From a virus, in IMG/VR virus record IMGVR_UViG_3300024999_000049, positions 1-64,000 of that record: a stretch of 64,000 nt of DNA; one strand, 5' to 3'. The translations under genes and the position numbers were made by a program. The stretch's first letter is position 1. Each line of letters starts with the position of its first letter. Of the stretch, positions 46,846 through 63,904 are shown piece after piece. The notes beneath the pieces were generated by a model that was given only the letters and a program-made list of their open reading frames with translations, made no database searches and was not told where the DNA came from.

Positions 46846-46849
46846 AGTC

Positions 46850-47218: not shown

Positions 47219-47253
47219 TCACCTCCAACTAATTATACAATAAAAATCTTATT

Positions 47254-47595: not shown

Positions 47596-47862
47596 AGTGT
47601 GTACTCCTTTTTATTTTTAATTTTACAATAATTCGGAATATTATAAAAGAATAATTTTATTTATTTAAAACTTTTGATAAAATTCAATACTGCTTCCATG
47701 TTACTTTTTAGCTCAGCCAGTTTATGATAATCAATATCATTCCGATTATCATTTAAATGTTGAGCAAATAATATTAAATCACATTTTAAACTTACCATTG
47801 TTTCATTTATATCCATATTTAACTCCTTTCTTTGAAAATAAAATCCGTCTTTCATTTTCCTT

Positions 47863-48078
47863 TTAAATAAGTAATCCTTTTATTGCTGTGCCGATTAATA
47901 CTAAACTCAAAACACTTAAAAATCCAAATTCTTTATACCCATATAAATGATGTACATATATTTTTTGATAAGTTTTTATAGTTAAGAAGATACAAAATGT
48001 AGATAAAAATATCCCAAATAATAAAATGGCTATACAAAGAATTTTCCATAGTAATAACATATATGTTTCCTCCTCCAA
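47863..48078 (-). CDS. small two-TM membrane protein
   Basis: Two hydrophobic helices. Confidence 0.6.
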   Translation of the reverse strand: MEEETYMLLLWKILCIAILLFGIFLSTFCIFLTIKTYQKIYVHHLYGYKEFGFLSVLSLVLIGTAIKGLLI

Positions 48079-48092
48079 TTAAAATACGTTTT

Positions 48093-48284
48093 TTATTTAC
48101 TTTTCTTCAATCTATTTTCTTCTCTTGCAAGAGGAACCCAAATAGAATATAGTTCCGTTCTTTTCTTTTCAAATTCTTCATTAATTGCAATAATCTTTCT
48201 ATTTCTATCTTCTTCAAGTTTTTTTATTGCATCTTCAACTTCTTTAATCTTAATTTTCAATTCTTCATATTCCATTTGATTCAC
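48093..48284 (-). CDS. coiled-coil hypothetical protein
   Basis: Stop in the 48079 site. Confidence 0.55.
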   Translation of the reverse strand: MNQMEYEELKIKIKEVEDAIKKLEEDRNRKIIAINEEFEKKRTELYSIWVPLAREENRLKKSK

Positions 48285-48374
48285 TTCCTTATAAAATTCA
48301 CAATTCGAGTACTTTTATTATATACTAAAATTTATAATAAAGCAAACTGTAATATTAATTATTACTATATTAAC

Positions 48375-48940
48375 TTAATTATTGCCTTTGTACTCTCCAT
48401 AATATTTTTCACGCATTTCTTCTGCAAATATACCAGCCTGATGTACATCACCAAATTTACCTAACATAGTATTTTTACCTTCTTGTAATTGAACACAAAA
48501 TAATCCTTCAATTTCAGATACATTTCTATACCCTGTCTTATTGTTTTTATTTTTATCTCCTCTATGTTGTAAATTTTTATTATTCTTGGTACAACGTAAA
48601 TTTGACTCTAAATTATTCAATGTATTATGACCTTCATGGTCTACGTATATTTCTGGATTGTGTTCAGGATTCATTATTTCAATATGTAAATATCTTGACC
48701 TTCCATGACGTTTTCCATCTTCTCCTGTATATCTTTCACATGCCATTGCATAATATGTTCCTGTGTTTGGAGCATATCTTAAATGCCAATGTAAATCTAG
48801 GTCTTTAATTCTTTTTAAATTCTTAGTATCAATAGGTGTTTCAAATTTTTCTTTCTTTCGATTATAAAGAAATATTACGGCAATTTCCCCTCTAATCTCA
48901 TAATCATTAAAGGTAATTTAGGTGGTGCTATTATAATCAT
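48375..48940 (-). pseudogene. HNH-AP2 endonuclease, apparently frameshifted near the 5' end
   Basis: YLH, VDH...NTLNN..SNLR and AP2-like NKTGYRNV...LGKF...AEEMR. The frame continues upstream to FNDYEIRG but meets TAA near 48920, while the RBS-linked start is in another frame. Confidence 0.6.
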
Positions 48941-49203
48941 CCTTTCTTATATTTGTTTTATTGCTATTTAAACTCTTCGAATCTCGCATTTTAATCACTT
49001 TTATGACATTTATCATGCTTTTTGCAGTTTAAACAAATGTTAGCTTCTCCATCACTATATTTGATAAGTGTTTCACCAAATTCTTCTTTTGAAATTTTAT
49101 TATCTTGCCAACATTTTAACAAATCTTGAATTGCTAGAGAATATTTCTTACATACTGCCATTTTAAAAACCTCACCCTCCCATTAAAACTTGTATTTTAT
49201 TGC

Positions 49204-49431
49204 CTATTTACTAATCCACATTCCTATTGGAAGTAAACTATCACTTTCAGAATATTTATATTTAACCTTATAGCCTAATTCTTGTACTTTTGCTTCTACA
49301 TGATCAGAATAAAGCATGAATGCAATATCTCCATCTTCTACTATTAACTTTATATCTGTCAAACAGGATGCCTTTTCTCCATGATCTCCACCATGACACA
49401 TTTTACAATTAACAACTACTATTTCAGGCAT
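49204..49431 (-). CDS. hypothetical protein
   Basis: ATG at 49431 after AAGGAG. Confidence 0.6.
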   Translation of the reverse strand: MPEIVVVNCKMCHGGDHGEKASCLTDIKLIVEDGDIAFMLYSDHVEAKVQELGYKVKYKYSESDSLLPIGMWISK

Positions 49432-49444
49432 TTTAACTCTCCTT

Positions 49445-49714
49445 CTATTTACTTTTATTAACATAATATAAAAACACTTCTTCAATTTCTTTAATATTAT
49501 CTTCTACATACCCTTCTCCATTTGATATAAATGCTAAAGCCTCGGTTGATGGTTCAGAAGAATATTTATTGTCACCAGTTGCATCCAAAACAGAAATATC
49601 AATATCATATTCTTCAAACATATTTGTTAATTCACGCTCTAACATTTTCGCTTTTTCTATTGTCGCTTGTATTTGTCTTAATTTATTTTTAATCTTAACT
49701 GGCATTTGTTTCAT
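49445..49714 (-). CDS. hypothetical protein
   Basis: GGTG RBS; co-oriented. Confidence 0.6.
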   Translation of the reverse strand: MKQMPVKIKNKLRQIQATIEKAKMLERELTNMFEEYDIDISVLDATGDNKYSSEPSTEALAFISNGEGYVEDNIKEIEEVFLYYVNKSK

Positions 49715-49770
49715 GATTAATCACCATCCGTATTTATATATTTTCTTGCATTTGCTTATATGCCCATAGT

Positions 49771-51735
49771 CTAACAATATATCATGCGATTTCCAGATTT
49801 TCTATCATACCAATCTCTTTTAGATTCTATACCAAATTCTTTACACATTTTCACAAATCCTCTTTTTGAAAATCCTATAGAGAATGAAAAATCAAATGAA
49901 TTGCTATTATGATTCCACATCCCAAAATCATTTGATAAAGGATGCTGCAATAAGCTAACAGGATCAATTATGTCTAATATACTATTACCTTGATGATTAT
50001 GTCTTCTTTCCCATCCTTTTATAATTTTAGGAAATGAATCTTCATTCTGATTTAAAATTAATGTTAAGTGCTTATATGATGTTGGATGAAATGTAAAGAA
50101 ACAAGATACAAGAGTATTATTAATAGGACATAAAAATTTACCATCATACCTATATTCATTTTGTCTTTTATTAATAAAAAATTCTGGAGACTGTCTTTCT
50201 GGATAAGATAAATTCTGCTTTGTAATAATTTTATCTAAATCATCATATTCTCCATCTTGAAAACCATAAATATGAGCTAAAACAAGATAAACATAGTTGA
50301 TATTTTCTCTAATCTGTTTTTCATACCATTCAAGAACTTTCTTTTTACCTCCAAAAGACTCCAATTCCTTTTCCATTTCAATAGTTATATGTTTTGCTAA
50401 AGCTTTCCTTGACCACCAATAGTGAATCATTTTTATTCTTTTTTTAGAACCAATCATTTCATGTTCTGTCATAGATTCTATTAAAGGTTTATCAATTTCA
50501 CTTGTATTCGTAACTAATAGTTTTGTATCATTAATATTTTTAAAATCTAAATACCTATTATCAAAATCTGAACCATATAAATCAACGAAAATTTGTTTTT
50601 CATTATTAAATGTACCATAATCCATATATGAATCATTTTCATTTTTTGTATCAAACTCTTTAGAATATTCACCATTTAAGAACTTTTTTTTATCATAAGA
50701 AACGATAATATTATTTTCATATGTTTTAGCTAAAGACGTATTTTTCTGAATTGGTACTAACGAATTATTATTGTTATCTAGCAATTCAGTTGATTTTGTT
50801 TTTAAGATAAGACTATGTACATATGAAAGTCTCTTATTAGGAACTTTACCAACATAGATTTTATTTATAAGGAATATTGCAATTACTATTGGAAGATAAG
50901 CATCTACCCCTAAATTAAAAATAGCAAGATTAGTCTCATCAATAATGTGTTTTGATGCATACCCTTTATAATCATGGCCTTCAAATTTAAAAATATAATC
51001 ATAAGGAAATAATTCATATTGCTTATTCTCAGCATCCCTGTGATTTCTTTTATGACTGTTTTGATCTGGATATCTTTCATCAATTCTTTCTGAGATAGAA
51101 AATATGTTATCTCCATCTTTTATATAAAATCCAAAATACCCATAAGCACTATCATTCATTCTAATATAGCAAAGATATATAGCATCTTTTGCTATATTAA
51201 TAGCCTTTAAACAATCTTCACTGGTTTCAAATACATGAATATATGTATTGAATCCAATGTTACCCTTAAAACATGTTCCTTTTGCATAAATATCATATTT
51301 ACATTTTTCAATACCATCTATAGCAATAGTCATTAATCCTAATAGCTGCTCTGCTGAAACTTCTGATTTAAAATCTCCAATTAATTTTCCATCGGTTACT
51401 TTATCAACAATTTCATTTAATCTCGTCTTAAATGTATTTTCAATCGAAGACATAAACGAACTATTAAAATCATTCCACATATCTTTTGATTCTTCATAAT
51501 CTGAAGGGTCTTGAATTAATTCAAAAAGTGATTTCGGTCTATATTCTTCTAAAACTTTTTTACATAGTTGTTTTGCATATAATGCTGATAAAATTCCAGA
51601 ATCATCATACTCAGAAAGTTTTTCAATCTTTTTATTGCCATCATGAATCCAATAAGAACCTAAGTTAAATCTAGTTTGATCTGGATTATAATTAATAAAT
51701 TTTGCCCATTTATTTAAAATTTCAATTGCATTCAT
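49771..51735 (-). CDS. large hypothetical protein (654 aa)
   Basis: ATG at 51735 after GAGGTG; no family recognised. Confidence 0.8.
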   Translation of the reverse strand: MNAIEILNKWAKFINYNPDQTRFNLGSYWIHDGNKKIEKLSEYDDSGILSALYAKQLCKKVLEEYRPKSLFELIQDPSDYEESKDMWNDFNSSFMSSIENTFKTRLNEIVDKVTDGKLIGDFKSEVSAEQLLGLMTIAIDGIEKCKYDIYAKGTCFKGNIGFNTYIHVFETSEDCLKAINIAKDAIYLCYIRMNDSAYGYFGFYIKDGDNIFSISERIDERYPDQNSHKRNHRDAENKQYELFPYDYIFKFEGHDYKGYASKHIIDETNLAIFNLGVDAYLPIVIAIFLINKIYVGKVPNKRLSYVHSLILKTKSTELLDNNNNSLVPIQKNTSLAKTYENNIIVSYDKKKFLNGEYSKEFDTKNENDSYMDYGTFNNEKQIFVDLYGSDFDNRYLDFKNINDTKLLVTNTSEIDKPLIESMTEHEMIGSKKRIKMIHYWWSRKALAKHITIEMEKELESFGGKKKVLEWYEKQIRENINYVYLVLAHIYGFQDGEYDDLDKIITKQNLSYPERQSPEFFINKRQNEYRYDGKFLCPINNTLVSCFFTFHPTSYKHLTLILNQNEDSFPKIIKGWERRHNHQGNSILDIIDPVSLLQHPLSNDFGMWNHNSNSFDFSFSIGFSKRGFVKMCKEFGIESKRDWYDRKSGNRMIYC

Positions 51736-51790
51736 TTCTTTCACCTCTCTTATTTTACCCCACAAAATAACCAGTTTATTGACTTTCTTA

Positions 51791-51973
51791 TTATTTCTTT
51801 AACCAATGTGTTGGAGTATAATATACATACATACTCATATCTGTCAACCACCACAAATTTCCTTTTCTAATAAGTTCCTGAATATTTCTTTCTCCATACT
51901 TATCAGATAATTTTGTTTTAACAACATTACCTTCGGTTGGTAATTCTTTGCCAACTTCAATCCATTTTTCCAT
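51791..51973 (-). CDS. DUF551-like small phage protein
   Basis: WIEV.KELP...PTHW; bounded by the 51762 and 51989 sites. Confidence 0.65.
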   Translation of the reverse strand: MEKWIEVGKELPTEGNVVKTKLSDKYGERNIQELIRKGNLWWLTDMSMYVYYTPTHWLKK

Positions 51974-52010
51974 ATTATATTCCTCCATATAAAATATCAT
52001 ATTTATAGTT

Positions 52011-52361
52011 TTACCACCATATACTAAAATTCATTTTATCTTTCATAATATTTCTATCTTTTTCATTCGTATTTTTATAACTATCTATAAAGTTTATTAC
52101 TGCTTCTTTGAATGTTTTTCTCTGATTTTCACGCTTTATATATTCTTCAGAATTAGCACATTCATCTTTTATTTCTTCTCTGCTAAAATTAGGGCAATAT
52201 TCTATTTTACATCCACACGAGAATTTTCTTGTTTCCCATCTGCCACCATAACAATGTTCTCTATATTTGTTTTTATCAAACATATTAACTTCTGTAGTTT
52301 CTTCTATTATGAGCGAACAACCACACTTAGGACACTTATCTGTTTTAATATACTTTAACAT
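52011..52361 (-). CDS. Cys-rich hypothetical protein
   Basis: CPKCG, HC, FSCG, YCPN. Confidence 0.65.
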   Translation of the reverse strand: MLKYIKTDKCPKCGCSLIIEETTEVNMFDKNKYREHCYGGRWETRKFSCGCKIEYCPNFSREEIKDECANSEEYIKRENQRKTFKEAVINFIDSYKNTNEKDRNIMKDKMNFSIWW

Positions 52362-52364
52362 TTT

Positions 52365-52910
52365 TTATCCTCCCATACCACACCACAAATATATTATCAA
52401 ATCCTTACTTACTTTTCCATATGCTCCGTTAATATCATTCTTAACAATATATTTTAACAAAGCATTAACATGAGCCTGTGCGTTCTTCTTTGTATCCTCA
52501 GAACCTTCTTTCGAGTTAATATACATTTTAATATCATCTGGACTTACAAAACCGCAGTCAAGTCCTCTTAACACTTCAAGAAACATTCCTATGCCTGATC
52601 TATATGCTGCCTTACTTGATTCTTTAACTGCCTCATTGTTCTCAAAAGCATCAAAATATTTCTGATTATCTGAGGATAAAGAATACTGTTTCAATGGCGT
52701 AATATAGTTGTCAGATTTCCAGATTTTAAGGTGTGAAGTATCTACATTATTTTCTTCACATACCTTTTTAACATTCTTCATGTGTGTAGTTACGGTTTTG
52801 TTCATTCCAAGTCTATCCACAACATCAGGATAACTTTTAGAATTAGCTACTACCATTTTAAAATAATCTAGCTGTAATATTTTCCTACCTATATTTATTG
52901 TTTCACTCAT
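52365..52910 (-). CDS. protein with N-terminal HTH-like and C-terminal integrase SAM-like domain
   Basis: SKSYPDVVDRLG...NVDTSH, then SKAAYRSGIGMFL...DDIKMYI...TKKNAQAHVNALLKY. Confidence 0.55.
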   Translation of the reverse strand: MSETINIGRKILQLDYFKMVVANSKSYPDVVDRLGMNKTVTTHMKNVKKVCEENNVDTSHLKIWKSDNYITPLKQYSLSSDNQKYFDAFENNEAVKESSKAAYRSGIGMFLEVLRGLDCGFVSPDDIKMYINSKEGSEDTKKNAQAHVNALLKYIVKNDINGAYGKVSKDLIIYLWCGMGG

Positions 52911-53018
52911 ATTATTGTCAAGTCCTTTCTTCGTTGGTTTTGTTTAACTTGCTTAGTATGAATATAGTATAGCAAATTTTTATTTCATTGTCAATAGATT
53001 TTTTAAATATTATTATAT

Positions 53019-53453
53019 TTATTTTGTTAAAACTTCTACTTCTACTTCTTCTTCCTCTTCTTCTTTTTCTCTAAACTTCTCATTAACTTCATGTAATTCA
53101 ACCAATGTATACCAATTCCCTTCTTTATCATGATCTTGTACTTGTAAATTACAGATCATTGATACCATTCTTCTATACACTTTCTCCGCTGCACTAAGAT
53201 GTTCATCCATCCCGCCAAATCCATCAATATGTCTCGGAGATATTTCGTTGATGAAAGTCGACAACTTAAAATATCCAGTATCAATCAATTTCATAAATAG
53301 TTTAGATATCCAATGATATTTACTATCTAATTTTATATGTTCAATATCTCCATATACATTATCGGCTATAACCTTTTCTATTCCTTTTTCTCCGTACCAT
53401 AATTTACAGGCTAATACCAAATCTGATTCCATTTTATCTAATTTAAGTGCCAT
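53019..53453 (-). CDS. hypothetical protein with acidic tail
   Basis: GAGG RBS. Confidence 0.65.
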   Translation of the reverse strand: MALKLDKMESDLVLACKLWYGEKGIEKVIADNVYGDIEHIKLDSKYHWISKLFMKLIDTGYFKLSTFINEISPRHIDGFGGMDEHLSAAEKVYRRMVSMICNLQVQDHDKEGNWYTLVELHEVNEKFREKEEEEEEVEVEVLTK

Positions 53454-53639
53454 ATGTATACCTCACCTTTCAATGCCCAACTTCATTCTTAATCTCATTA
53501 CCAATCCTTTTATATGATCTGCCTGAAGAAATACTTTATCACATTCATTAATATCTCTCAGGATTCCATTCGCTTGTTGTTCAATTGCACTCAATAAAAA
53601 TTCTATATCCATATTCATAATCACTTCGAATCCTTTCTT

Positions 53640-54554: not shown

Positions 54555-54717
54555 CTTTCATTTACAATACTATACTTACTTAGTTAAAAAGTCAATACCT
54601 AATGAAAAAATATTTTTATAATACCATTACCTATGAGGCTATATCCTCTGACAGTAAACATAATGATCTAATCTCCTTCCTATTTATTATGAGTGAGATA
54701 GTATTTTTAAGGTCTAC

Positions 54718-54990
54718 TTATTTTATTTTAATATCATCCGACATATTGATATATAACGTTTGTTTTTTAGAAATGGTAGCACATCCAATCTTATCATCGT
54801 TTTTATCATACAATTCTAAATAAAGTAAAGGATGATTATTCTCAAAAGTAAATATATCATGCCTATATACATTGAACACACTAACACCGTTAATTGTTAA
54901 GCTATGGCAGTCGTTATCTGCTTCAATTTCTTCAATACTTGTACCTACTAATAATTTCAAATCATTATAACTTAATACCTTCATAATCAT
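54718..54990 (-). CDS. hypothetical protein
   Basis: AAGGAG RBS. Confidence 0.6.
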   Translation of the reverse strand: MIMKVLSYNDLKLLVGTSIEEIEADNDCHSLTINGVSVFNVYRHDIFTFENNHPLLYLELYDKNDDKIGCATISKKQTLYINMSDDIKIK

Positions 54991-55029
54991 TCTCCTTCTT
55001 CCTGTTATACAGGATATAAAATAGTATTT

Positions 55030-55317
55030 TTATTTCCTACTCATTTTCTTTTTTCTTTTATCTATCCATTCGTCAAATTCTTGATTATTTAAATAAACCA
55101 TAGGTATACATGGATTACTATCTGCAATATCTCTATAATCTACAATTCTTCCAATTGATTTTCCATCTTCATAGATATATACAAAAATTTTTTCTACTGG
55201 TTTTATTGAGTTTAATCTATTAACTACTCTTTCTACTAAATCATCCATATCATTGCTTTGACCTAATTCCATTTTATATCTATTAAATTCACCATAGTTC
55301 CCTATTGCTTCATACAT
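55030..55317 (-). CDS. hypothetical protein
   Basis: GGAGG RBS; stop in the 55016 site. Confidence 0.6.
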   Translation of the reverse strand: MYEAIGNYGEFNRYKMELGQSNDMDDLVERVVNRLNSIKPVEKIFVYIYEDGKSIGRIVDYRDIADSNPCIPMVYLNNQEFDEWIDKRKKKMSRK

Positions 55318-55536
55318 GTTCATACCTCCATTAATCAATTGAATTTCTTATTTGATTGTTTTTATACTTCATACCCAAATGGTATCTCAACATTATTCTT
55401 TTGAAGTATACCAACAATTTCTTCATATCTTCCAGATTCAGTAAGTGTTAAGTTATGTTCTTGCTCCATCTCTGTTAATTTGTAAAGTTCATCAAGTAAA
55501 TTATCAAATGTATTATCTATCACCTGTTATACCTCC

Positions 55537-55731
55537 TTATATTTGATTTTTTAATTCTTCCAAATTGATATTTAATACCTTTGCCACTCTCAAAAGTTCC
55601 TTACCTGTTATAGTGTCTCTGGTTAACTTGTCAACAAAAGTTTTGTAGTTTATTCCTGATTGATCTGCTACCCAGGTCTTAGTCCTACCTTGCTGTTCTA
55701 TGATGTTTGAAATGTATTCACCTAGATTCAT
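55537..55731 (-). CDS. XRE/Cro-like HTH protein
   Basis: TKTWVADQSGINYKTF...ELLRVAKVL. Confidence 0.8.
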   Translation of the reverse strand: MNLGEYISNIIEQQGRTKTWVADQSGINYKTFVDKLTRDTITGKELLRVAKVLNINLEELKNQI

Positions 55732-55988
55732 TCCTTATCATCCTCGTCTTCGTCTTCATAATCTTCCTCTGAATCCTCAACTTCCAATTTTCCATTTTGA
55801 TTAATAAGTATTTCTTTATAACCAATAGTTTCATTCTCTTCAAAATCAACTAATGTATGTCCTTTCACAGAAAACACACTTACCGCAGTTTGATACTCTA
55901 CATAAAATTGAGGCATCTCAATAATAATTTCATTATCTTTGTTTTGCAAAATCTTTGCATTCTTTGGTAATCCTACTTTTAATAACAT
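55728..55988 (-). CDS. hypothetical protein with acidic tail
   Basis: AAGGAG RBS; TTGACA...TATAAT promoter near 56036-56064. Confidence 0.65.
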   Translation of the reverse strand: MLLKVGLPKNAKILQNKDNEIIIEMPQFYVEYQTAVSVFSVKGHTLVDFEENETIGYKEILINQNGKLEVEDSEEDYEDEDEDDKE

Positions 55989-56141
55989 AATTTTAATACT
56001 CCTTCAAATTTTATTTTCGTTCAACTTCTTAATATTATTATATATCTATTTTATCCTGTTGTCAAGACATTTATTCGTATTTTTAAATATTTTTATCTGA
56101 TATTTCAGACTTAAAGAAAATAAAATCTTGGATTTATTGGA

Positions 56142-56336
56142 TTATATTCTTATTTGTTCCCAATCATTAAAAAAATCTTCAAGGATTTTATATTGAACTG
56201 TTCCATAAGAATAAATATCTTCTCCATATGATATTAACATTGGTATATTTAAACTATGCCGTTCTAATATTACCTTATAATTATTTCCTGTAATTAATTT
56301 TTTTCTATTTTCTGTGCCTACATATTTTAAAATCAT
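56142..56336 (-). CDS. hypothetical protein
   Basis: TAACAGGAGGG RBS. Confidence 0.6.
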   Translation of the reverse strand: MILKYVGTENRKKLITGNNYKVILERHSLNIPMLISYGEDIYSYGTVQYKILEDFFNDWEQIRI

Positions 56337-56376
56337 AATACCCTCCTGTTATAGCCTGTCGGCTGTTATACTATTA

Positions 56377-57084
56377 TTACATTCTTATCCCATTATAAAT
56401 CGGACTAAACTCATACAACCATTCACTAACCTTTTTCTCCTGATCTGTCCATGATTCCCTGTTAAATACATTATCTGTCCCTTCAACTCTTTTGGGATAA
56501 GTAAAGAATCCAAAGTCAAATACATTCTTTGCTACAAACCTGATAGTATTGCTGTCATCTGTTATATCAGCATCGTAGTATCCGTCTTGTCCATTTTCTT
56601 CTCCACCGGAAGGATTAATATGTTTATATACCTTACTAACTTTAAATTGTGCTTGTCTTTCTGCTTTTGCTTTATTTTCTGCTTCTTGAATTGCTTTTTC
56701 TTCATTATCCTTTTTAATCAGATCAAGAATTATAGAAGTAAGTTTTTCTCTGATAACTTTATTAGGTATAGTTCCAGTACCTTCGAAAGTTTTATCAATA
56801 ATTCGTTTATAGTATATTGCTTTGTATTCATCTGTCCAACCTTCATTAAAAGGTAATGGTTTATAGGTATCAAGAGCAATTTGTTTTAGTTCGTTATTGT
56901 GGTTTAGGATTCTTGCGATAGCTTCAGCATTGATATAGACTGTGCTGTAATGCTGATTACGGATATCACGTATAATATCCTGTATTTTATATTCTGAAAT
57001 ACCGTTATATATTCCGTATGCATCTGAATCATTTACACGGAATTCTAAATCTCTGTTCAGGTCTTTTTGTTCTTCATTTTTCAT
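56377..57084 (-). CDS. hypothetical protein
   Basis: 235 aa; AAGGAG RBS. Confidence 0.75.
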   Translation of the reverse strand: MKNEEQKDLNRDLEFRVNDSDAYGIYNGISEYKIQDIIRDIRNQHYSTVYINAEAIARILNHNNELKQIALDTYKPLPFNEGWTDEYKAIYYKRIIDKTFEGTGTIPNKVIREKLTSIILDLIKKDNEEKAIQEAENKAKAERQAQFKVSKVYKHINPSGGEENGQDGYYDADITDDSNTIRFVAKNVFDFGFFTYPKRVEGTDNVFNRESWTDQEKKVSEWLYEFSPIYNGIRM

Positions 57085-57136
57085 GGTTAATTCTCCTTCT
57101 GGCTGTTATGGTTACCAACCTGTTAAAATTGTTCTT

Positions 57137-57376
57137 TTATTGTATTATCGTTACTTCTTGAATTTCTATATCCATAAATAATTTAAGCACTTCAATTTCC
57201 GTATTTGGAAACTTTTCAATCAAACTTTTTGCTACCTGTTCACAATAATCTTTATCGTAAAAGAAATGTGCGTTGAGTAAATCCCCTGTTAATTCAATCT
57301 CATTGTTTTCATTATATTTAATATACATTCCTTTTCCAATGTAAATTACACGATTTCTAAAAACTTTCTTAGCCAT
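57137..57376 (-). CDS. hypothetical protein
   Basis: Stop in the 57123 site. Confidence 0.6.
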   Translation of the reverse strand: MAKKVFRNRVIYIGKGMYIKYNENNEIELTGDLLNAHFFYDKDYCEQVAKSLIEKFPNTEIEVLKLFMDIEIQEVTIIQ

Positions 57377-57415
57377 AATAATAACCCCTTTCTGTTATTC
57401 ATATTTTACCATTTA

Positions 57416-58039
57416 TTACGCTACACTTCTATACCCTGTTCCATGTTTTGTATTAGCCGTTACAATCTTATTTTCTGCTACCATGTTTTTAAACAACTCA
57501 TAAATATAATGCATATCAAGATCATTAGAAGAATAAACACCTATATAATTTAATAACCTTTTAATCCTATATTTACTTAATACTTTTTGCAAAGGATTCC
57601 AGCCATCTGTTATGAATAAATTCTTTCTTTTAGTCTTATATATCGTTAGTATATCCTGCTCAATTTCAACTCTTTTGGACTGTAGTATACTCATATATTC
57701 ATCATCTGTTATATCAAAAACTTCTTCATAAATATCTGTATTCCTAAATGTAAATAAATCATTATTCAAAAGGTTTTCGATTATCGGAATATTCTCTTCG
57801 ATCACTATACCAGATACTTGTTGAGGATGAAGATATAATTCCTGCTTGTCTTTTGTTACTGTGTTACAACCACTGTTAAATCTTTCTTTCTTAATTTCCC
57901 ATCCATTATTAAGGAATAAATCTGTTATTGACTTTTTGAATAACTCTCCATCTTCAGGAGTGTTCCAACCTACTCCATATTTTGAATTATAATATGAAGG
58001 TGTATTGATATTAAAATAAACTCTCTTAAATATTGACAT
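57416..58039 (-). CDS. hypothetical protein
   Basis: 207 aa; TAACAGGAGG RBS. Confidence 0.75.
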   Translation of the reverse strand: MSIFKRVYFNINTPSYYNSKYGVGWNTPEDGELFKKSITDLFLNNGWEIKKERFNSGCNTVTKDKQELYLHPQQVSGIVIEENIPIIENLLNNDLFTFRNTDIYEEVFDITDDEYMSILQSKRVEIEQDILTIYKTKRKNLFITDGWNPLQKVLSKYRIKRLLNYIGVYSSNDLDMHYIYELFKNMVAENKIVTANTKHGTGYRSVA

Positions 58040-58285
58040 TGTAAATTTCCTCCTGTTATTATATTCGTTTTATTATACTTCCATATGATCTATAATATCG
58101 TTATAACATATATTGTTATGTGACATCATAAAATATCCTAATGCTTCTGGTATACAATCGGCATCAATATGACATTCTTGTCTTTCTCCATTTTCAATAT
58201 AGTATATTGCATATGTACTTTGCTCCATTTTCAATTACCTCCTGTTATTATACATACTCTGTTATTGGTTAATGAATCCGTCCTT

Positions 58286-58522
58286 TTATTTTCTTTTTAT
58301 TTTCAATTCACCATTGTAAAATTCAGTCTCTTCGTCACCTAAATAACCAAAATAAGTTAATAAATATTGTTTCAAGATATCTTTTGATTCTTCCCATATT
58401 CCCATTTGTGCTAAATGATTTTGAATCCTTTTTACTGTTTCACTATATCCTTCTTCCTTTACACTATTAAATTTTTCTTGAATAAAAGCTCTTACTAATT
58501 TTTCTTGCTGTTCATTAGTCAT
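58286..58522 (-). CDS. hypothetical protein
   Basis: Bounded by the 58272 and 58557 sites. Confidence 0.65.
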   Translation of the reverse strand: MTNEQQEKLVRAFIQEKFNSVKEEGYSETVKRIQNHLAQMGIWEESKDILKQYLLTYFGYLGDEETEFYNGELKIKRK

Positions 58523-58581
58523 TTTATTTTTTCCACCTTTCCGGCTGTTATAGCCTATAAAAACATCTTTTTATTTACTTG

Positions 58582-58824
58582 TTACTCTTTACCTACAAAC
58601 ATTTTAAACAAAGTGGTTTTTGCATCCTTCCATGCTAGAATTGCTGTATGTTCTTTTGTGCCACAATATAACTCATTCAAAGACATATCAGAATTAGTTC
58701 CATATACTACATATATTTTTCCAATTGGTGTTTCTATTGTATATGTAGAAATAGCATATACTTTTCCGTTATGGTCTATTTTAATTTCATCTGTTAAGAT
58801 TGTCTTGGATTCAAATTCTTTCAT
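58582..58824 (-). CDS. hypothetical protein
   Basis: GAAGG RBS. Confidence 0.6.
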   Translation of the reverse strand: MKEFESKTILTDEIKIDHNGKVYAISTYTIETPIGKIYVVYGTNSDMSLNELYCGTKEHTAILAWKDAKTTLFKMFVGKE

Positions 58825-58863
58825 ATTATACCTTCTTTCTCCTGCTCTGTTATGGCAGGACTA

Positions 58864-59067
58864 TTATACTATTTTCTTACCTCTTTTTGTCCAATCAAGA
58901 TTGTTCTTACAGAATTCCTCTGCCTGTTCATACGTCAAATTATCTTCTTGAAATGTACCATCTGGAGCGAATATTGCATAGCCTTGCTTTAGGGTATAGC
59001 CTTCAGGTATTTCCTTCTCAGTTTTTTCTTTTATACTCCAGTTGTTTAGTTTCTTAATTACTCGCAT
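58864..59067 (-). CDS. hypothetical protein
   Basis: TAACAGGAGG RBS. Confidence 0.6.
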   Translation of the reverse strand: MRVIKKLNNWSIKEKTEKEIPEGYTLKQGYAIFAPDGTFQEDNLTYEQAEEFCKNNLDWTKRGKKIV

Positions 59068-59087
59068 TATTGTTATCCTCCTGTTAT

Positions 59088-59294
59088 TTAGTATTTAAAA
59101 GTTTCAATTGATTTTCTTAACTGATCCGAATAGTTTTTAGTTACTTCAATGAAATTAAGTGGAGGAACATTTTGTTTTGTACAATTGTTTATAACAGTTA
59201 CCCATCCATCTAAAGCAATATTTGTAACAATCCCAATTTCAACCACACTAGAATTATTATAAAATAGCAAATCTCCTTTTTTAATTTCAAACAT
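59088..59294 (-). CDS. hypothetical protein
   Basis: AAGGAG RBS. Confidence 0.55.
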   Translation of the reverse strand: MFEIKKGDLLFYNNSSVVEIGIVTNIALDGWVTVINNCTKQNVPPLNFIEVTKNYSDQLRKSIETFKY

Positions 59295-59524
59295 TGTTAT
59301 ACTCTCCTTCTACAGTTCGCCCTTTGTCGAATCGGTTGCTGTTATATCTCAATTCCAAAAGGTATATCTATATCATTTTCATGAAGTAAATCAACGATTA
59401 TTACATACCTTTCTCTTTCTTCTTCTGTTAATGTCTCTGTTAATTCTTTTTGTGTATAGATATAGAGTTCGTCAAGTAATGATTCAGAAAATTCCTTGTT
59501 CATTTTTAATTTTTCCTTTCGCTA

Positions 59525-59719
59525 TTATTCCACTTCTATAACCAGCCCTACACCATCAATCGCATACATGTATGTTATTTCTTTATCCAATACTCTACCA
59601 TTGAATATTGCAGAATCTGTTTCTGTTAAAATGTTATAGGTTTCCTTCTCTTCATCCCATTGTTTTACTGTTACATTACCCTGTAATGTTATAGTATCTG
59701 TTATATCTCTAAGTGTCAT
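59525..59719 (-). CDS. hypothetical protein
   Basis: GAAGG RBS. Confidence 0.6.
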   Translation of the reverse strand: MTLRDITDTITLQGNVTVKQWDEEKETYNILTETDSAIFNGRVLDKEITYMYAIDGVGLVIEVE

Positions 59720-59765
59720 TTTTATATTACCTTCTTTCTGTTTAAAATCCTTGTTTCATTTACTG

Positions 59766-59996
59766 TTAATACACCAATTCAGCAAACCACTCATTATTTT
59801 TCAACTCAACTTTTCTAATAAAGCTGTTCTGAATTCTATTCATCATTAATCCGTCAACTTCATCTTCACTTGTGAATTCTGCTGTTACTGGTTGCATTGC
59901 CTGAGTATATTGTAATTTATAGTTTATTTTTCTTTCGTCTTTCTCATCGAGTTTACACCATTCTTGAAAGTTCATACCGTAATAACTTTTTCTCAT
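59766..59996 (-). CDS. hypothetical protein
   Basis: AAGGAG RBS; lies between the 59742 and 60017 sites. Confidence 0.6.
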   Translation of the reverse strand: MRKSYYGMNFQEWCKLDEKDERKINYKLQYTQAMQPVTAEFTSEDEVDGLMMNRIQNSFIRKVELKNNEWFAELVY

Positions 59997-60042
59997 TTTG
60001 TTACTCCTTTTACCAAATAAATTAATAGTTTCATTGGTCTCC

Positions 60043-60234
60043 TTATAGCGTTTCTGTTATATCTCTACCTGAATTTTCCCACTTAGTTACTGTAATTTTA
60101 TACCCTTCGCTTTCAGGAAATTTCACTTTAAAAATATTGTATATTGTTTTCAATTCATACATAACTGTTACTGATCTTTCGGCTGTAGCAAAGAAATGTT
60201 TGCCATTTAGAGATACATTAATTTCATAGTACAT
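60043..60234 (-). CDS. hypothetical phage protein
   Basis: YEINVSLNGKHFFAT...KFPESEGY. Confidence 0.65.
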   Translation of the reverse strand: MYYEINVSLNGKHFFATAERSVTVMYELKTIYNIFKVKFPESEGYKITVTKWENSGRDITETL

Positions 60235-60895
60235 ATATTATATCCTTCTTTCTGCCTGTATAGGCTGTTACTCTTCATAATCTAAACATTCTGTTATTGT
60301 TTCATCTGATGAAAATTTATCTTTAATATCCATATTCCTACTAGAACAGTATTCTAAACAATTTTCATCGTTACCATAATTACATTCATGTACAAATTTC
60401 TTACAACCATTACAAATACTATTGTTATCAGTAATTCTCATACTTTACCTCTTAATATTCTTCTCCAAATTCATCACTCAGTAAACAAGTTAATTCTGTT
60501 ATTGTATTATCCAGTATATCCATTACCCTGTTCCCTACCTGTAGAGAATTATCATAGCTTGCTTTCTGGCTTTCCAGTTCATTAATTGTTATTTTAATCA
60601 TATTAATCATTATTGTTTTACTCATTGTTGTATTCTCCTTCTCCCTGTTTGCCCTATCGTCAAATCAGGGAATAAATGCATCATTTTATTGGGTATTATC
60701 GCCTGTTCTGTTATAGATATTTACCCAAATAAGCAACATCAAATTCACTATTAATCTTTTCAAGTTCATTCAGAATTTTATATTCTGTACTACCTTCAAT
60801 ATTTTTATTTGGTAACTTATCAAGTAATATATAAATGTTATCAAGACGTTTTTCTAGAAATTCTTTTTCTCTATATGTCATAATATCACCCCTTT

Positions 60896-61150
60896 TTATC
60901 CTTTCATCAAATCATCAATTGTTATATCCAATAACTCACAAAGTTGTAAGGCTGTATAAAATGACGGTCTATTACCTTTAGTCTTTGTCCATGCATAAAC
61001 TGTTTGAATTCCAATATCTAAACTATCAGCAATATAATTATACTTGTATTTCTCAATTAATGGTTTTAAATTTTGTTTAATTGTCTCTGCATTAGTATTG
61101 TTATATTGCTGAATAATTTTGATAGTGTCCTGTTGCTGTTCTTTAGTCAT
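60896..61150 (-). CDS. XRE-like HTH protein
   Basis: IADSLDIGIQTVYAW...PSFYTALQLCELLDITIDDL. Confidence 0.8.
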   Translation of the reverse strand: MTKEQQQDTIKIIQQYNNTNAETIKQNLKPLIEKYKYNYIADSLDIGIQTVYAWTKTKGNRPSFYTALQLCELLDITIDDLMKG

Positions 61151-61175
61151 ACTCTTGTATCACCACCTATTATAA

Positions 61176-62088
61176 TTATCCTGCTACCTCCTGCAATTCG
61201 TTTACAAGGTCGTAAATGTCACCATCATATATTTTATTGAGTTTATCAAGTGATTTTTTGCATTTGCCATGAATTTTTTTCAGCTGTTCTACTATCTGTA
61301 TCATAACCAAAATTTGAACAAAAATCCTCAAATGATTCTGATCCGCTTACAGCATCAGAGACAAAACAGTAAAAAGCGTTTAATATATTGTATTCCTTTT
61401 CTAGTATTGGCTGTGCTATAGATGCCCAAAATTCAAATCTTGCCTTTTCTCCTGTCTCTACATTGGTGACTGTTATCATGTGGTTATTAAAATTGTTGTC
61501 GCTCCATTCTGCCTTTTTAGTTCCTTTATAACTTGCTTTTACCTCAAATTGTTTAAATGTTGCTTTATTTGTTTTTTGTTCTGTATGTTCTGGCTTGATA
61601 TACTTCTCGAATATAGCTGTTATTTCTGTTATTACTTCTTGCGGTAATGGTTCAACAAGCCAAGAATGACCATATTTATAACCGTTATCCTCATATAATC
61701 CGGCTGATTTTAACGCTTCACAAATAGCCGTATAATCATATTCGTTTGTTTTCTTCCATTCATCAATAAATGCTTGCTGTTTTGCTGTTCCTGCTTTCAT
61801 GTCGTTTAAATGCCATTTATTCCATATTGTTATTATAGTATTGAGGTCATTTTCAGATATAAACATTTCCTTATAACTTTTTATGTCTGCAATTTCTTCC
61901 GTGTTCTGTCCACCATTTCCACTCATTGAAAGGGTTTTATATGCTGTTATTGTTTGATGATCAATTGTCTGTGCTGTTCTAGTGTCTGCTTCCTGATGAA
62001 TTTCAAGATTGATATACATTTTCTTTCCTGTGTTCTTTACTCCTACATATAATTTTTTACTGTAAAGGGTTTTTGTATCGTTATACAT
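61176..62088 (-). CDS. hypothetical protein; C-terminus frameshifted in an A7 run
   Basis: The ORF track ends at 61246; removing one A at 61274-61280 extends it to EKIHGKCKKSLDKL...QEVAG with stop at 61176. Confidence 0.65.
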
Positions 62089-62212
62089 TGTATAAACTCC
62101 TTTGCCTACCTGCTGTTATCAGTTCAGGATTTACGGCTTTTTAGATGTTTTACCATCTTTACAATACCATTATTAAAATGATACTGTAAACAGGGTAAAC
62201 CCTGTTATAATG

Positions 62213-62518
62213 CTATTTATCTTCGTCTTCCTCTTCTTCTTCAATTTCTTCTGTTTCTTGCTGACATTCGCATTCTTCCCCAGATTCGAAAAGTTCTCCA
62301 CATTCTGAACAAACTTCTTTTCCTATCCATTCGGCTACCGTTTCAAAATCAAACCAGAATAGATCATTTAATTCTGTTTCGCTCATACCATCTGGGTTAG
62401 TATCTTCCAGTATTGCTTCAATTTGATCAAATTCTTTAGAGGTTAACTTTTCCGCATTATCTTTTGCTCCACTCCAAAATTTAAAATTTGAAAGATTTTC
62501 TTCTTTATAAAGTTTCAT
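62213..62518 (-). CDS. highly acidic hypothetical phage protein
   Basis: FKFWSGAKD...SETELNDLFWFD; Glu-rich tail. Confidence 0.75.
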   Translation of the reverse strand: MKLYKEENLSNFKFWSGAKDNAEKLTSKEFDQIEAILEDTNPDGMSETELNDLFWFDFETVAEWIGKEVCSECGELFESGEECECQQETEEIEEEEEDEDK

Positions 62519-62683
62519 TATAAAACTCCTTGCAAACTGCTTGCCTTACGGTTCAAGTCTTACGTTTTTACTATACCTTATTATAACATATAAGATATTA
62601 GTATGTCAATACTATTTTAAAATATTTTTTTAATTTATTTTTATATTCACTTTATTGAATATTTACCCAATAAAAATGGGATT

Positions 62684-62878
62684 TTATTTACCAAAATTAT
62701 CATAATAATGTTTTGCTTCTAAAAATTGCATTCCTGCAATAAATCCATTTATTTCTTCATATGTACCAATATAAAGAGTCTCTTTATTTTTCAATATTGC
62801 AAAATTTAAATTATACGCTGGTTTTATTTCAATGTAACCACCTAAAAGCCTTTTAATTTCCTTCTCTTGATTAGTCAT
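62684..62878 (-). CDS. hypothetical protein
   Basis: GGAGGG RBS; stop in the 62670 site. Confidence 0.65.
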   Translation of the reverse strand: MTNQEKEIKRLLGGYIEIKPAYNLNFAILKNKETLYIGTYEEINGFIAGMQFLEAKHYYDNFGK

Positions 62879-62928
62879 AAATTCCCTCCATATTATTATT
62901 ATATTCCTGTTACTCTATATCCTGTCTA

Positions 62929-63156
62929 TTATGCCATTTTAGCCCTGTACAAGCCTATTAATCTGCTCATATGTCCCGGTAATACCTTTCGCTTTTTGAT
63001 CTCCTGTGATACTAGTTTATATTCTGTTTTAAGCCGTAGCAAGGTTAAACTGTTGTTATACAAATTAGAGTTAAAATCTGCCATTAATTCCTCATAATTT
63101 GATTTTGTATGTAATAAGCCAGTGTTAGTAAATAGTTTCATGTCTGATTTATTCAT
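62929..63156 (-). CDS. hypothetical protein
   Basis: AAGGGAG RBS. Confidence 0.55.
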   Translation of the reverse strand: MNKSDMKLFTNTGLLHTKSNYEELMADFNSNLYNNSLTLLRLKTEYKLVSQEIKKRKVLPGHMSRLIGLYRAKMA

Positions 63157-63535
63157 TGTGCTTTTTCTCCCTTCTTATTATGATTAACAGTTTTGTTATA
63201 TAACAACTTTGTTATACTGCTATTTGAATATGTTTTGTCCATCGTGGTTGCTTTACTGGCTTGCTGATCTTTAGCCATAATTCCAGTAATTCCGCATTTG
63301 ACATAGATAATAAGTCTATGTATGTGTATATGTGTGTGCTGTGCTGTATTTTGCTTATTAAGATTGTGTTATTGTTCGGCATGGGGTTTACTCCTTTCTG
63401 ATTTATTTTTGATAGCCTGTTATGCCACCACATAAGCCCATGATATTATATTTGCTTTATCATGGGTTTAAATTGTGTCATATTCTGTTATTTAGTGTAT
63501 ACTACATACATTTTATTGAAAGCACTTTCCAATCT

Positions 63536-63904
63536 TTATAACTTTTGTAAATCTAAAATACAAACAAACTTTTTAAACCATTCTTCAGACACATTTCCAG
63601 ATAAAATATTGTCAATATCATCCATAATATCGTCAATATCACAAGATATAAATAAATCTGCTTTTTCAAGTTGTTGTAACTTGTTTCCTATTACTTTTGA
63701 CAAATTAACTTCAACGCTGTTATTTCTAATTTTTGTAATTGTCAAAAGTTTTGATAACGTTTCCATTGATATAGACCAGGAATCAGTTTCATCAGTTTCC
63801 TTTTTGTAAAAATATGTCTCTGTGTCATAATCTTTATCATGTACTGTTATTTCTTCGCCTTCCTCTGTTTGTTGAAGATAATCATATAATGTTATATTTT
63901 CCAT
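63536..63904 (-). CDS. acidic hypothetical protein
   Basis: GGGAGG RBS. Confidence 0.7.
   Translation of the reverse strand: MENITLYDYLQQTEEGEEITVHDKDYDTETYFYKKETDETDSWSISMETLSKLLTITKIRNNSVEVNLSKVIGNKLQQLEKADLFISCDIDDIMDDIDNILSGNVSEEWFKKFVCILDLQKL

Follow-up and report, generated by a model that had tools for sequence, protein, structure and literature searches.

What reads a seven-base word that a phage repeats dozens of times along one strand of a single genome segment? This question is raised by a DNA stretch of 64,000 nt (the window), which is part of a 120,193-base contig (G000) from a phage that is related to SPbeta/c-st, has not been cultured and encodes an RNA polymerase of the YonO type. 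The word is ATAACAG, with TAACAG as its core. It lies on the minus strand, which is the coding strand of the segment concerned, and reads CTGTTA on the plus strand.

A one-stranded word that saturates an early gene block

The original prediction, which claimed about 45 plus-strand copies of CTGTTA and about two reversed ones, understated the bias: between positions 55002 and 63849 we counted 48 copies on the plus strand and 2 on the minus strand, and all 25 coordinates that had been listed were recovered as CTGTTA matches. Before position 55002 the two strands of the window carry 9 and 10 copies, respectively. Over the whole window and both strands there are 69 copies, a number reached by none of 100 dinucleotide shuffles (mean 33.3, maximum 46). 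The longer form CTGTTAT accounts for 33 of the 48 plus-strand copies, while 1.1 occurrences of ATAACAG would be expected from the rest of the window. The segment had been described as the last 9 kb of the window, which needs correction, since it continues to position 73,508 of the contig. This whole block of 18.5 kb holds 83 copies against 4 in reverse, as a polar signal would, at a density of about one copy per 220 bp and an enrichment of approximately 50-fold.

The excess does not derive from the encoded proteins. The 54 open reading frames (ORFs) of the block contain 48 copies, compared with 19.8 +/- 3.6 in synonymous-codon shuffles (maximum 30, n = 1000) and 9.4 +/- 2.9 (maximum 19) when codon order was shuffled within genes. 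Both open frames are used, with 33 of the 83 copies in the frame xTA-ACA-Gxx and 15 in the frame xxT-AAC-AGx. The other 35 either lie between genes or overlap a stop codon. Non-coding DNA makes up only about 22% of the block, yet the word is densest between genes. A codon-preserving shuffle had been set beforehand as the test that could overturn the claim of selection on the nucleic acid; the enrichment did not vanish, and rather than being uniform over the genome it is confined to the block. The ATAACAG excess is thus selected at the nucleic-acid level and not for a peptide, and (A)TAACAG is a selected, strictly one-stranded cis-signal that saturates the block.

The block comprises 50-odd small early-type genes, all in one direction, and begins at a divergent control region with promoters, in keeping with the early region that had been proposed. 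Its features within the window, and those of the adjoining arm, are given in Table 1. The 1.3-kb non-coding leader at the head of the block has a single copy, and the long intergenic region around the promoter with the 18-nt spacer has none. We place the distal boundary at the intergenic region that follows the last copy, since no motif-rich DNA lies downstream of it. The larger of the two helix-turn-helix (HTH) proteins, both named in the original prediction, is the sole product of the block for which a relative turned up among the other genomes compared (G009; blastp E<1e-4), and that relative is encoded outside G009's own block.

Table 1. Features of the motif block and its surroundings (window coordinates).
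Feature	Position	Strand	Details
Replication/nucleotide-metabolism arm	1..53500	-	downstream of block, same transcription direction; DnaE (392-3841), ribonucleotide reductase, RecJ-like, AAA_24, DnaB-like
Intergenic region beyond last motif copy (55002)	54555..54720	-	promoter-like TTGACT-17-TATAGT
Motif block, part inside window	55002..63849	-	48 TAACAG, mostly ATAACAG, on coding strand
Small HTH protein, 64 aa	55537..55731	-	phrog_4583, annotated transcriptional repressor, E 1.4e-7
Second consensus sigma-A-type promoter in block	56037..56065	-	TTGACA, 17 nt, TATAAT
Intergenic copy in hairpin loop	58825..58866	-	CCTGC-CATAACAGA-GCAGG, just before ribosome-binding site
Small HTH protein, 84 aa	60896..61150	-	phrog_8, transcriptional regulator, E 2.2e-5
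Consensus sigma-A-type promoter in block	62580..62609	-	TTGACA, 18 nt, TATAAT, with TG

Carriers among related phages and placement of the copies

Among 50 related viral records, six further clear carriers and one borderline carrier have the word in equivalent blocks, with ATAACAR as the core shared across lineages. The remaining 43 YonO relatives have no such block, it is absent from ten cultured relatives, and no alternative clustered word was found in six non-carriers that were scanned. Carriers occur patchily among the relatives, without regard to YonO similarity: their YonO identity ranges from 36% to 73%, whereas relatives at 52-61% lack the block. In all six carriers studied the word is on the coding strand of the block, which always lies across the divergent region from YonO. 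The block genes themselves are unrelated between carriers, and none of the block ORFs gave a match in another genome at E<1e-5. Related records that end in "terminal repeats" are circular assemblies, the repeats being overlaps of 48-150 bp.

None of eight carriers is flagged as a provirus, compared with 18 of 44 non-carriers. This sets the word apart from the stoperators of mycobacteriophage L5 and cluster A, 13-bp sites on both arms that are oriented with the transcription of each arm and serve a prophage repressor. Both systems have many asymmetric sites oriented with transcription and located between small genes, but the present word has 7 nt and is found in one block only; on the other arm it is absent or avoided, and the corresponding orientation is not enriched there.

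Copies often stand directly before or within ribosome-binding regions. Intergenic copies are over-represented in the loops of hairpins whose stems pair perfectly over 6 bp or more (28/148 compared with 196/2400 control positions; odds ratio 2.6, p 6e-5), which fits a display of the word as single strand, and predicted RNA accessibility at the word is only weakly raised. The distances between copies approximate a Poisson process, which is what a signal acting through density would give; in four of five genomes the copies are scattered in this way and not at one per cistron. The carrier G033 has a different arrangement, with about one copy per gene placed before ribosome-binding sites and fused to a second box near the Shine-Dalgarno (SD) sequence. 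Word and box together make up a 23-nt element, TAACAR-N11-TYGAAC, which occurs 15 times, in the block only, before about half of the block genes.

The G033 element might suggest that the word forms promoters, or promoter halves, of a phage-specific transcription system, which we consider extremely unlikely. Such promoters would be expected once upstream of each unit and not under selection within ORFs, where 48 of the 83 G000 copies are found, in excess of both shuffle nulls. No second box accompanies the word in G000, consensus sigma-A promoters are already present in the block, and an 11-nt spacer does not fit sigma-70-type promoters. Promoter function would also leave unexplained the avoidance of the word on the antisense strand of the late arm, described below.

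Depletion of the same DNA orientation on both arms

In genes of at least 80 aa on the arm downstream of the block, TAACAG occurs 3 times in the sense strand against 10.6 expected, a count as low being seen in 1 of 500 shuffles, while the reverse orientation is neutral (10 CTGTTA against 8.9). The late arm has the opposite pattern with respect to its genes: CTGTTA is found once in the sense strand where 10.1 copies are expected (0/500 shuffles as low), and TAACAG is not avoided (12 against 13.0). The DNA orientation that fills the block is therefore depleted on both arms regardless of gene direction, which is a new observation. On the late arms, TGTTAT takes second place for depletion among about 1350 hexamers in G000 and again in G009, and place 9 of 2081 in G033. 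Avoidance extends to the replication arm in G009 and G048, where ATAACA ranks 6 of 2028 and 4 of 1103, respectively, in the downstream arms. Six motif-free genomes served as controls and gave z between -2.7 and +2.0. Under an independent, strand-specific order-2 Markov null, the block orientation shows a 4- to 5-fold deficit outside the block and the other orientation 0.55 to 1.0 of expectation, being neutral in G000 and at most mildly low in the relatives.

Avoidance that follows the DNA strand on both arms speaks for a reader tied to a single strand or direction, and against a tag that acts purely on mRNA. Of the two alternatives originally proposed, the DNA-level signal thus fits better than an mRNA-sense signal, given that late mRNAs avoid the complement and not TAACAG. 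Since the same DNA orientation is selected against elsewhere on both arms, we infer that the word is read on DNA by something that meets the whole genome in a fixed direction, probably as an exposed single strand. We put the probability of a DNA-level signal bound to one direction at roughly 0.55.

A transcript-level tag would be bound as AUAACAG in early RNA, nascent or mature, or else as ATAACAG on the non-template strand exposed in the transcription bubble. The protein that binds it might be a nuclease, a repressor, an antiterminator or a host factor that is titrated, and would set the early class apart. Precedents for early-class control of this kind include T4 RegB with its GGAG targets, RegA and a protein sponge. 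The constant use of the coding strand, the copies at ribosome-binding regions and in hairpin loops, the one-per-gene arrangement with an adjoining SD in G033, and the avoidance of the word in the sense strand of same-direction downstream genes all agree with such a tag. A beta-CASP/RMMBL RNase-J-like nuclease gene (contig 86113-87546 in G000), also present in G048 and G019, might supply the binder, but it is missing from the other three of six carriers (G033, G009 and G052). The late-arm counts are the opposite of what a reader of AUAACAG RNA predicts, copies are not placed one per cistron in four of five genomes, and no intrinsic terminator was found that would part the block from the genes downstream, so that the transcript classes are not cleanly separated. 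We regard a tag on the transcript as unlikely, if worth serious consideration.

The comparison with RegB can be made more specific. This T4 endoribonuclease cuts GGAG in early mRNAs, likewise a short word on the early sense strand, often at ribosome-binding sites and rare in later genes. In contrast, selection on the present word follows the DNA strand and not mRNA sense, its copies are dense throughout ORFs, later mRNAs retain it, and no RegB-like gene was found.

Guide sequences for DNA motors also fail to match the pattern. KOPS, read by FtsK, and SRS, read by SpoIIIE, are polar words of 7-8 nt that are recognised by a moving motor, and ATAACAG is similarly polar and 7 nt long. However, KOPS and SRS extend chromosome-wide, flip at the origin and dif, and are avoided in the wrong orientation, whereas the word is enriched in the block only and is depleted elsewhere in the same orientation. 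The KOPS-type behaviour suggested originally was therefore not seen.

Another reading is a polar barrier. The block could be a field of stops for machines travelling in the direction of the late genes and thus antisense to the early ones, such as the YonO polymerase, which is very processive, or a replication fork that runs one way only; the stop could lie in the sequence itself, as in the T7 class II signal, or in a bound polar roadblock protein of the Tus/Ter type. The block is always on the far side of the divergent region from YonO, and avoidance is strongest on the late arm in the reading direction of such a machine. Nevertheless, 43 of the 50 YonO relatives do without a block and, in the six scanned, without a substitute word; avoidance in G009 and G048 covers a replication arm that a late polymerase need not cross; and no conserved candidate for a roadblock protein was found among the carriers. 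A barrier is distinctly unlikely on these grounds.

A further possibility is strand-specific nicking. A nickase would cut the early block at the word, whose copies there lie on the non-template strand. In late genes, copies on the template strand would halt transcription and hence be avoided, and this is the orientation that is depleted there. Genomes of the T5 type are interrupted by nicks, and UvrD-family helicases, which load at nicks, are associated with carriers. As no nickase candidate is common to the carriers and avoidance in G009 and G048 also affects the non-template strand of downstream genes, we give this possibility only a very slim chance.

Candidate readers and precedents

Long terminal repeats that carry early host-takeover genes are known from the T5 first-step-transfer region, SPO1, Kayvirus and P100-like phages. 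Such repeats have sharp boundaries, extend over 12-33 kb or about a tenth of the genome, and consist of tiny unidirectional early genes of unknown function with strong host-type promoters. The present block is alike in all these respects; we know of no saturating polar word in the repeats themselves. This resemblance allows for a packaging signal, in which a one-way terminase would read the word in the last-packaged segment and slow down or place the terminal cut, and copies elsewhere would give premature cuts. A signal of this kind would explain local enrichment, orientation-specific avoidance elsewhere and the neutral reverse orientation together. Even so, we hold it to be very unlikely: relatives of the large G000 terminase were not detected in the carriers G033 and G009 but are present in the non-carriers G010, G040 and G054, so that a packaging reader would lack the conservation that the word shows.

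If a concrete form of the DNA-level reading is to be chosen, the leading candidate is a Chi-like or gatekeeping signal in the segment exposed first, a guess that we regard as possible but fairly doubtful. Chi words act in one orientation relative to a double-strand DNA end, are recognised by the RecBCD/AddAB enzyme of the host and are over-represented in its chromosome. The block would form the end of the virion DNA that is exposed first, perhaps with terminal redundancy, similar in this respect to the early-gene terminal repeats of T5, SPO1 and Kayvirus. A helicase-nuclease, either a host enzyme of the AddAB/RecBCD type or a phage UvrD-type helicase, would enter at the block end, recognise the word from one side and stop degrading; recombination or circularisation could then start inside the block, where the high copy density would make recognition certain. 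Features counted in support are the excess at the nucleic-acid level, strand-absolute avoidance, patchy carriers, unrelated block genes, loop placement, near-Poisson spacing, the association with UvrD, the excess of the word in one bacterial genome bin and a precedent in other phages (both below).

Several observations weigh against it. Chi sites are not, to our knowledge, harmful elsewhere in a genome, so that a plain Chi model does not predict avoidance outside the block, and the Chi sequences known from Firmicutes are G/C-rich, unlike the A/T-rich ATAACAG. The bipartite element of G033 resembles a gene-expression signal, and the weakly raised RNA accessibility and the nearly motif-free leader also count against the model. 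UvrD-family helicases are encoded by 4 of 8 carriers and 1 of 44 non-carriers (Fisher p 0.0012), but those of G033 and of G009, G019 and G052 are only about 25% identical, and none was found on the G000 contig, which is only 65% complete. G000 also has its own yonJ-like exonuclease (phrog_284, E 1.5e-57), with relatives in carriers and non-carriers alike, whereas Chi-accumulating phages are described as typically lacking a recombination module (PMC12315714).

The same work provides the nearest precedent, in which co-oriented Chi sites cluster at one end of phage genomes (20/23 in LLS, 32 vs 0 in MD8; PMC12315714). According to it, the clusters of LLS, MD8 and P1 likewise consist of a short asymmetric word far above chance and almost wholly in one orientation, are concentrated in one part of the genome, inside and between genes without being driven by codons, and are common to unrelated phages, as expected for a signal read by the host (PMC12315714). 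The present word is about ten times denser than the phage Chi reported there (1 per 0.2 kb compared with 1 per 1.9 kb; PMC12315714). It further differs in that its block is sharply bounded and copies in the same orientation are strongly avoided elsewhere.

Tentatively, and at somewhat less than even odds, the word may be a new kind of place-marking signal, read in one direction, that labels the early or terminal segment for a one-way machine such as a host nuclease, rolling-circle fork, packaging motor or entry machinery. About a hundred copies would ensure that it is not missed, and its removal elsewhere that it is never misread. If this is true, infection by large Firmicutes-type phages would include a step not recognised before and defined by this reader, which is probably a host protein. 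Earlier polar DNA words, among them Chi, KOPS and uptake sequences, have in each case led to a machine that handles DNA. The present word is strongly enriched in one block, among the most avoided hexamers elsewhere and conserved despite unrelated block genes. The identity of the reader would explain how large uncultured SPbeta/c-st-like phages, which are widespread, set apart their host-takeover genes, and might also throw light on the protection, replication or packaging of their DNA ends. For metagenomic phage contigs, the word offers a simple bioinformatic marker of the limits of early blocks, and possibly of those of host groups.

In the gene content compared here, no phage gene is common to all carriers, and the same word is kept despite YonO identities of about 36%, so that the likeliest reader is either a machine of the host or a small phage protein that escapes recognition. 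In the one bacterial genome bin that contains a carrier element (G056), the word occurs 501 times against 247 for a reversed control (2.0 times), part of this excess coming from the element itself; in three other bacterial bins the ratio is 1.1 to 1.4.

A one-stranded word in the early-gene block

The word TAACAG, which reads CTGTTA on the plus strand, is concentrated in a stretch of small early-type genes at the end of the window. CTGTTA occurs 69 times on the two strands of the window, where dinucleotide shuffles give 33.3 ± 5.4. Between 55002 and 63849 there are 48 copies on the plus strand and just two reverse copies, as against nine forward and ten reverse in the first 54 kb. The original prediction had put these counts at about 45 and about two, and all 25 of the coordinates that it gave were confirmed. 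The window is bases 1-64000 of a viral contig of 120,193 bases (hereafter G000), which comes from a groundwater metagenome, is classed as linear and is estimated to be 65% complete. Sequencing runs listed for it comprise four entries from one study, available as contigs, with no RNA among them. On G000 the block extends to 73,508 and holds 83 copies versus four reverse over 18.5 kb. When clustered strand-specific hexamers were sought de novo, CTGTTA was the leading word by far in this contig (log-likelihood ratio 104).

The longer form ATAACAG accounts for 33 of the 48 window copies, with 1.1 expected from the remaining window. Position -1 is A in 59 of the 83 block copies and C in none, while the other flanking positions are uninformative; single-base variants of the word are not enriched, save mildly for TAACAA and TAACAC. 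Spacing is near random (coefficient of variation 1.0-1.1) in G000 and in the related IMG/VR records G009, G052 and G048, and more regular in G033 (0.63). Three cases of word pairs 17 nt apart in G000 found no support once all genomes were pooled, and cistrons with one or more copies were in excess only in G033 and G052, and weakly there.

It had also been proposed that selection acts here on the nucleic acid, and this was upheld. By frame, 33 of the 83 copies read xTA-ACA-Gxx and 15 read xxT-AAC-AGx, whereas the third frame would give a stop; the remaining 35 lie between genes or across stop codons, in a block that is only about 22% non-coding. The 48 copies within ORFs compare with 19.8 ± 3.6 in synonymous shuffles (maximum 30, n = 1000) and 9.4 ± 2.9 when codon order is shuffled. 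A peptide or codon artefact is ruled out by this use of both open frames, by the intergenic copies and by the excess that survives both codon-shuffle nulls.

Setting of the block and its relatives

The block comprises 50-odd small ORFs, every one on the minus strand and almost all without known families; two encode small HTH proteins. It starts at a divergent non-coding region, beyond which plus-strand genes encode CoiA-like, radical-SAM, YonO-type polymerase, beta-CASP nuclease, yonJ-like exonuclease and terminase proteins. Downstream of the block, in its own direction, lie genes for DnaE, ribonucleotide reductase, and RecJ-like and DnaB-like proteins, and no intrinsic terminators were found on the minus strand from the block to 44.6 kb. 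SPbeta shares this gene order, with yonO, the exonuclease and late genes on one side and small genes diverging on the other.

Coordinates of features in and around the word-rich block (G000 contig unless stated)
Feature	Position	Strand	Remarks
Word-rich block	55002-73,508	-	
Consensus sigma-A-type promoters	~73.67, 72.70, 62.6, 56.06 kb		Block head and interior
Further sigma-A-type promoter	~54.6 kb		Just beyond block end
Leader	72,335-73,500	-	Non-coding, A/C-rich, almost no G; promoters at ~73.67 and 72.70 kb upstream
Divergent region	~73.6-75 kb		Adjoins block head; 1.5-2 kb, AT-rich
Hairpin in divergent region	74,680-74,711 (L001:10680-10711)		Perfect 14-bp stem
Amidoligase-family protein	22078-23418 (window)		PF12224
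Radical-SAM protein	78649-79899		phrog_9298
YonO homologue	82051-84864 (L004:10051-12864)		Pfam RdRP domain PF05183 in precomputed hits
Beta-CASP/metallo-beta-lactamase nuclease	86113-87546 (L004:14113-15546)		RMMBL 'RNA specificity' domain, RNase-J/CPSF-like
CA-rich stretch resembling the leader	~50.8-51.0 kb of G048		
yonN-yonK gap	59,152-60,834 of SPBc2 (L169:1653-3335)	-	1.7 kb without genes

The G-poor leader at the block head carries one word copy only in about 1.2-1.3 kb; possible identities are a Rho-loading site and a non-coding RNA. Rfam matched nothing in the window or in contig 72-76 kb, the leader included. The hairpin may be an operator, part of an origin or a terminator that works in both directions. 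The beta-CASP nuclease is common to G000, G048 and G019 only. The amidoligase-family and radical-SAM proteins are possible nucleic-acid or nucleotide modification enzymes.

The single-chain RNA polymerase of G000 (937 aa), a homologue of SPbeta YonO, matches phrog_8308 and is by tblastn 50% identical to its counterpart in Bacillus phage BUCT082, 28% to that of c-st and 24% to SPbeta yonO. The protein collection holds more than 1100 homologues at E<=1e-10, with identity up to 77%. An identical protein was found on a 191,715-base contig, and a full-length version of the phage therefore exists. In the IMG/VR relatives L012, L013/L087, L014 and L089, the YonO match of about 934 residues stretches over some 3.6 kb of DNA, which suggests that a putative insert of about 0.8 kb, whether an intein, an intron or an added gene, interrupts the polymerase gene.

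Relatives were collected by aligning 28 YonO homologues, which led to 79 IMG/VR loci and to 50 whole records in which ATAACAG was counted. A one-stranded cluster is clear in six of the 50 (G033, G009, G052, G048, G019 and G006) and borderline in G049; G033 is complete at 180.5 kb and G009 is 85% complete. The YonO proteins of these carriers are 36% (G052), 50-53% (G033, G048) or 72-73% (G009, G019, G006) identical to that of G000, and records with YonO 52-61% identical to it have no block. In G000 and the five carriers fetched whole, the block adjoins the divergence point opposite the YonO arm, the word lies on the coding strand of the small genes, and all blocks are unidirectional. The core common to carriers is ATAACA followed by G or A.

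The ORFs of the G000 block had no tblastn match (E<1e-5) in 11 other genomes; by blastp, one of its HTH genes is related to a G009 gene, which lies outside the block there. Megablast of the block against phages gave no match, and single-protein searches with two block-flanking genes for close relatives returned no loci. Ten cultured relatives, from among 41 phage records matching YonO, were tested, and the block is absent from all of them (BUCT082, c-st, PMBT24, SPBc2, Perkons, MT835481, CB473P1, TR-TP1, 0305phi8-36 and D-1873). None of the eight carriers (G000 included) is flagged as a provirus, versus 18 of 44 non-carriers (p 0.04), a comparison confounded by record source. Six non-carriers scanned for an alternative clustered word showed nothing comparable. 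The non-carrier G010 has a one-stranded ACAAGG cluster at about 60-70 kb (21 in 10 kb vs 1.5 expected, 0 reverse), perhaps a variant ribosome-binding site or another polar word; its minus-strand genes are low in sense ATAACA (15 observed vs 27.7 expected).

Orientation-specific avoidance outside the block

Beyond the block, both arms of the genome are depleted of the word in the DNA orientation that it has in the block, independently of gene direction. Copies in reverse are neither scarce nor in excess in G000, and at most slightly scarce in relatives. We compared G000 genes of at least 80 aa with 500 codon shuffles. In the late arm, which comprises the plus-strand genes on the YonO side, sense CTGTTA occurs once vs 10.1 expected (0/500 shuffles that low) and sense TAACAG 12 times vs 13.0. 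In the downstream arm, on the side of the replication genes, the situation is the converse, with sense TAACAG at 3 vs 10.6 expected (1/500 shuffles that low) and sense CTGTTA at 10 vs 8.9.

When hexamers expected 8 times or more are ranked by depletion, TGTTAT comes second in the late arms of G000 (of 1370) and G009 (of 1332), only AAAAAA being ahead, and ninth of 2081 in G033. In the downstream arms, ATAACA takes sixth place of 2028 in G009 and fourth of 1103 in G048. Depletion is weak in G052 (rank 56 of 673), and the G048 late arm is too short for ranking (1 observed vs 7.6 expected). In the G000 downstream arm depletion is confined to the G-ending form, the core ATAACA standing at 21 copies vs 19.6 expected. 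The same tests in six non-carrier genomes gave z values of -2.7 to +2.0. The codon-shuffle result is borne out over whole arms with a strand-specific order-2 Markov null, which gives observed/expected counts of 8/32.2, 7/35.7, 14/64.5, 6/30.5, 0/8.0 and 9/25.0 in the block orientation and 0.55 to 1.0 of expectation in the opposite one.

This pattern bears on whether the word is read in RNA or in DNA. A tag carried by the transcript is a tentative reading, to which we give appreciably less weight: an RNA reader of AUAACAG predicts that late mRNAs avoid AUAACAG, whereas they avoid its complement. It is most simply explained by a signal tied to a single DNA strand, or to a single direction of movement, throughout the genome. 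This points to a unidirectional process, for which packaging, entry, rolling-circle replication and a nuclease that comes in from a unique end are the candidates. We therefore favour a DNA-level, direction-bound signal, with a probability of roughly 0.55. Among the other rival explanations, a polar stop field against machines moving in the late direction seems unlikely, a packaging signal is improbable, and strand-specific nick sites are slightly more so.

The most concrete model for a DNA-level signal, itself tentative, is that the word would serve as a Chi-like gatekeeper in a putative first-exposed, perhaps terminally redundant, early segment. There is documented precedent in phages LLS, MD8 and P1, in which co-oriented Chi sites are reported to cluster at one genome end (PMC12315714). 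The model has weak points: plain Chi biology predicts no avoidance elsewhere, the phage encodes its own exonuclease, and the two-box form of the word in G033 resembles an expression signal. The word can be grouped with the polar DNA words, but its density, its sharp restriction to one block and its orientation-specific purge from the remaining genome set it apart from every known kind. Literature searches found no published description of this word as a signal.

The most depleted hexamers in the late and downstream arms of G000, G009, G033 and G048 also include palindromes (AGATCT, with 0 observed vs 12-25 expected, AGTACT, CTGCAG, TTTAAA and words containing GATC), as is usual where restriction sites are avoided.

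Local anatomy of the copies and candidate readers

Of 148 intergenic copies, 28 fall within the loop of a perfect stem 6 bp or longer, as against 196 of 2400 positions used as controls (odds ratio 2.6, p 6e-5); with stems of 8 bp or longer the counts are 10 of 148 and 33 of 2400. The effect comes chiefly from G009 (11/29), the only genome in which the predicted unpaired RNA probability at the word is significantly raised (p 0.003); the rise is weak or absent in the other five. In G033 the word forms the first half of TAACAR-N11-TYGAAC, which has 15 exact copies, in the block only, each immediately 5' of a Shine-Dalgarno sequence. No second box was found beside the word in the other genomes examined.

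Promoters are a very improbable explanation of the copies. The particular candidate of a YonO promoter was rejected, since the SPbeta yonN-yonK gap, within which the YonO start site is reported to lie (PMC5467207), lacks the word by eye and most YonO phages lack the block. Identity with SPBRE, which serves the SPbeta repressor MrpR as operator, was likewise rejected, as that is a different, 15-bp element, reported at about ten promoters (PMC10516654).

Searches by tblastn and blastp found no gene common to all carriers and missing from non-carriers, and terminase, DnaE and replicative helicase types vary among carriers. The best lead for a protein that recognizes the word is a UvrD/PcrA-family helicase, present in four of eight carriers (G009, G019, G033 and G052) versus one of 44 non-carriers (G038; Fisher p 0.0012). 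Its gene lies at the block head in G052; across lineages the UvrD-type helicases are only about 25% identical, and the G000 contig encodes none. We favour a reader encoded by the host, because phages that differ greatly carry an identical word and its distribution is patchy. In one Clostridia-labelled bacterial bin the word stands at 2.0 times its reversed control, compared with ratios of 1.1 to 1.4 in three further bins, an excess that is suggestive only as a sign of a host reader. The same bin holds a carrier element, with 20 one-strand copies within 5 kb upstream of its YonO gene.
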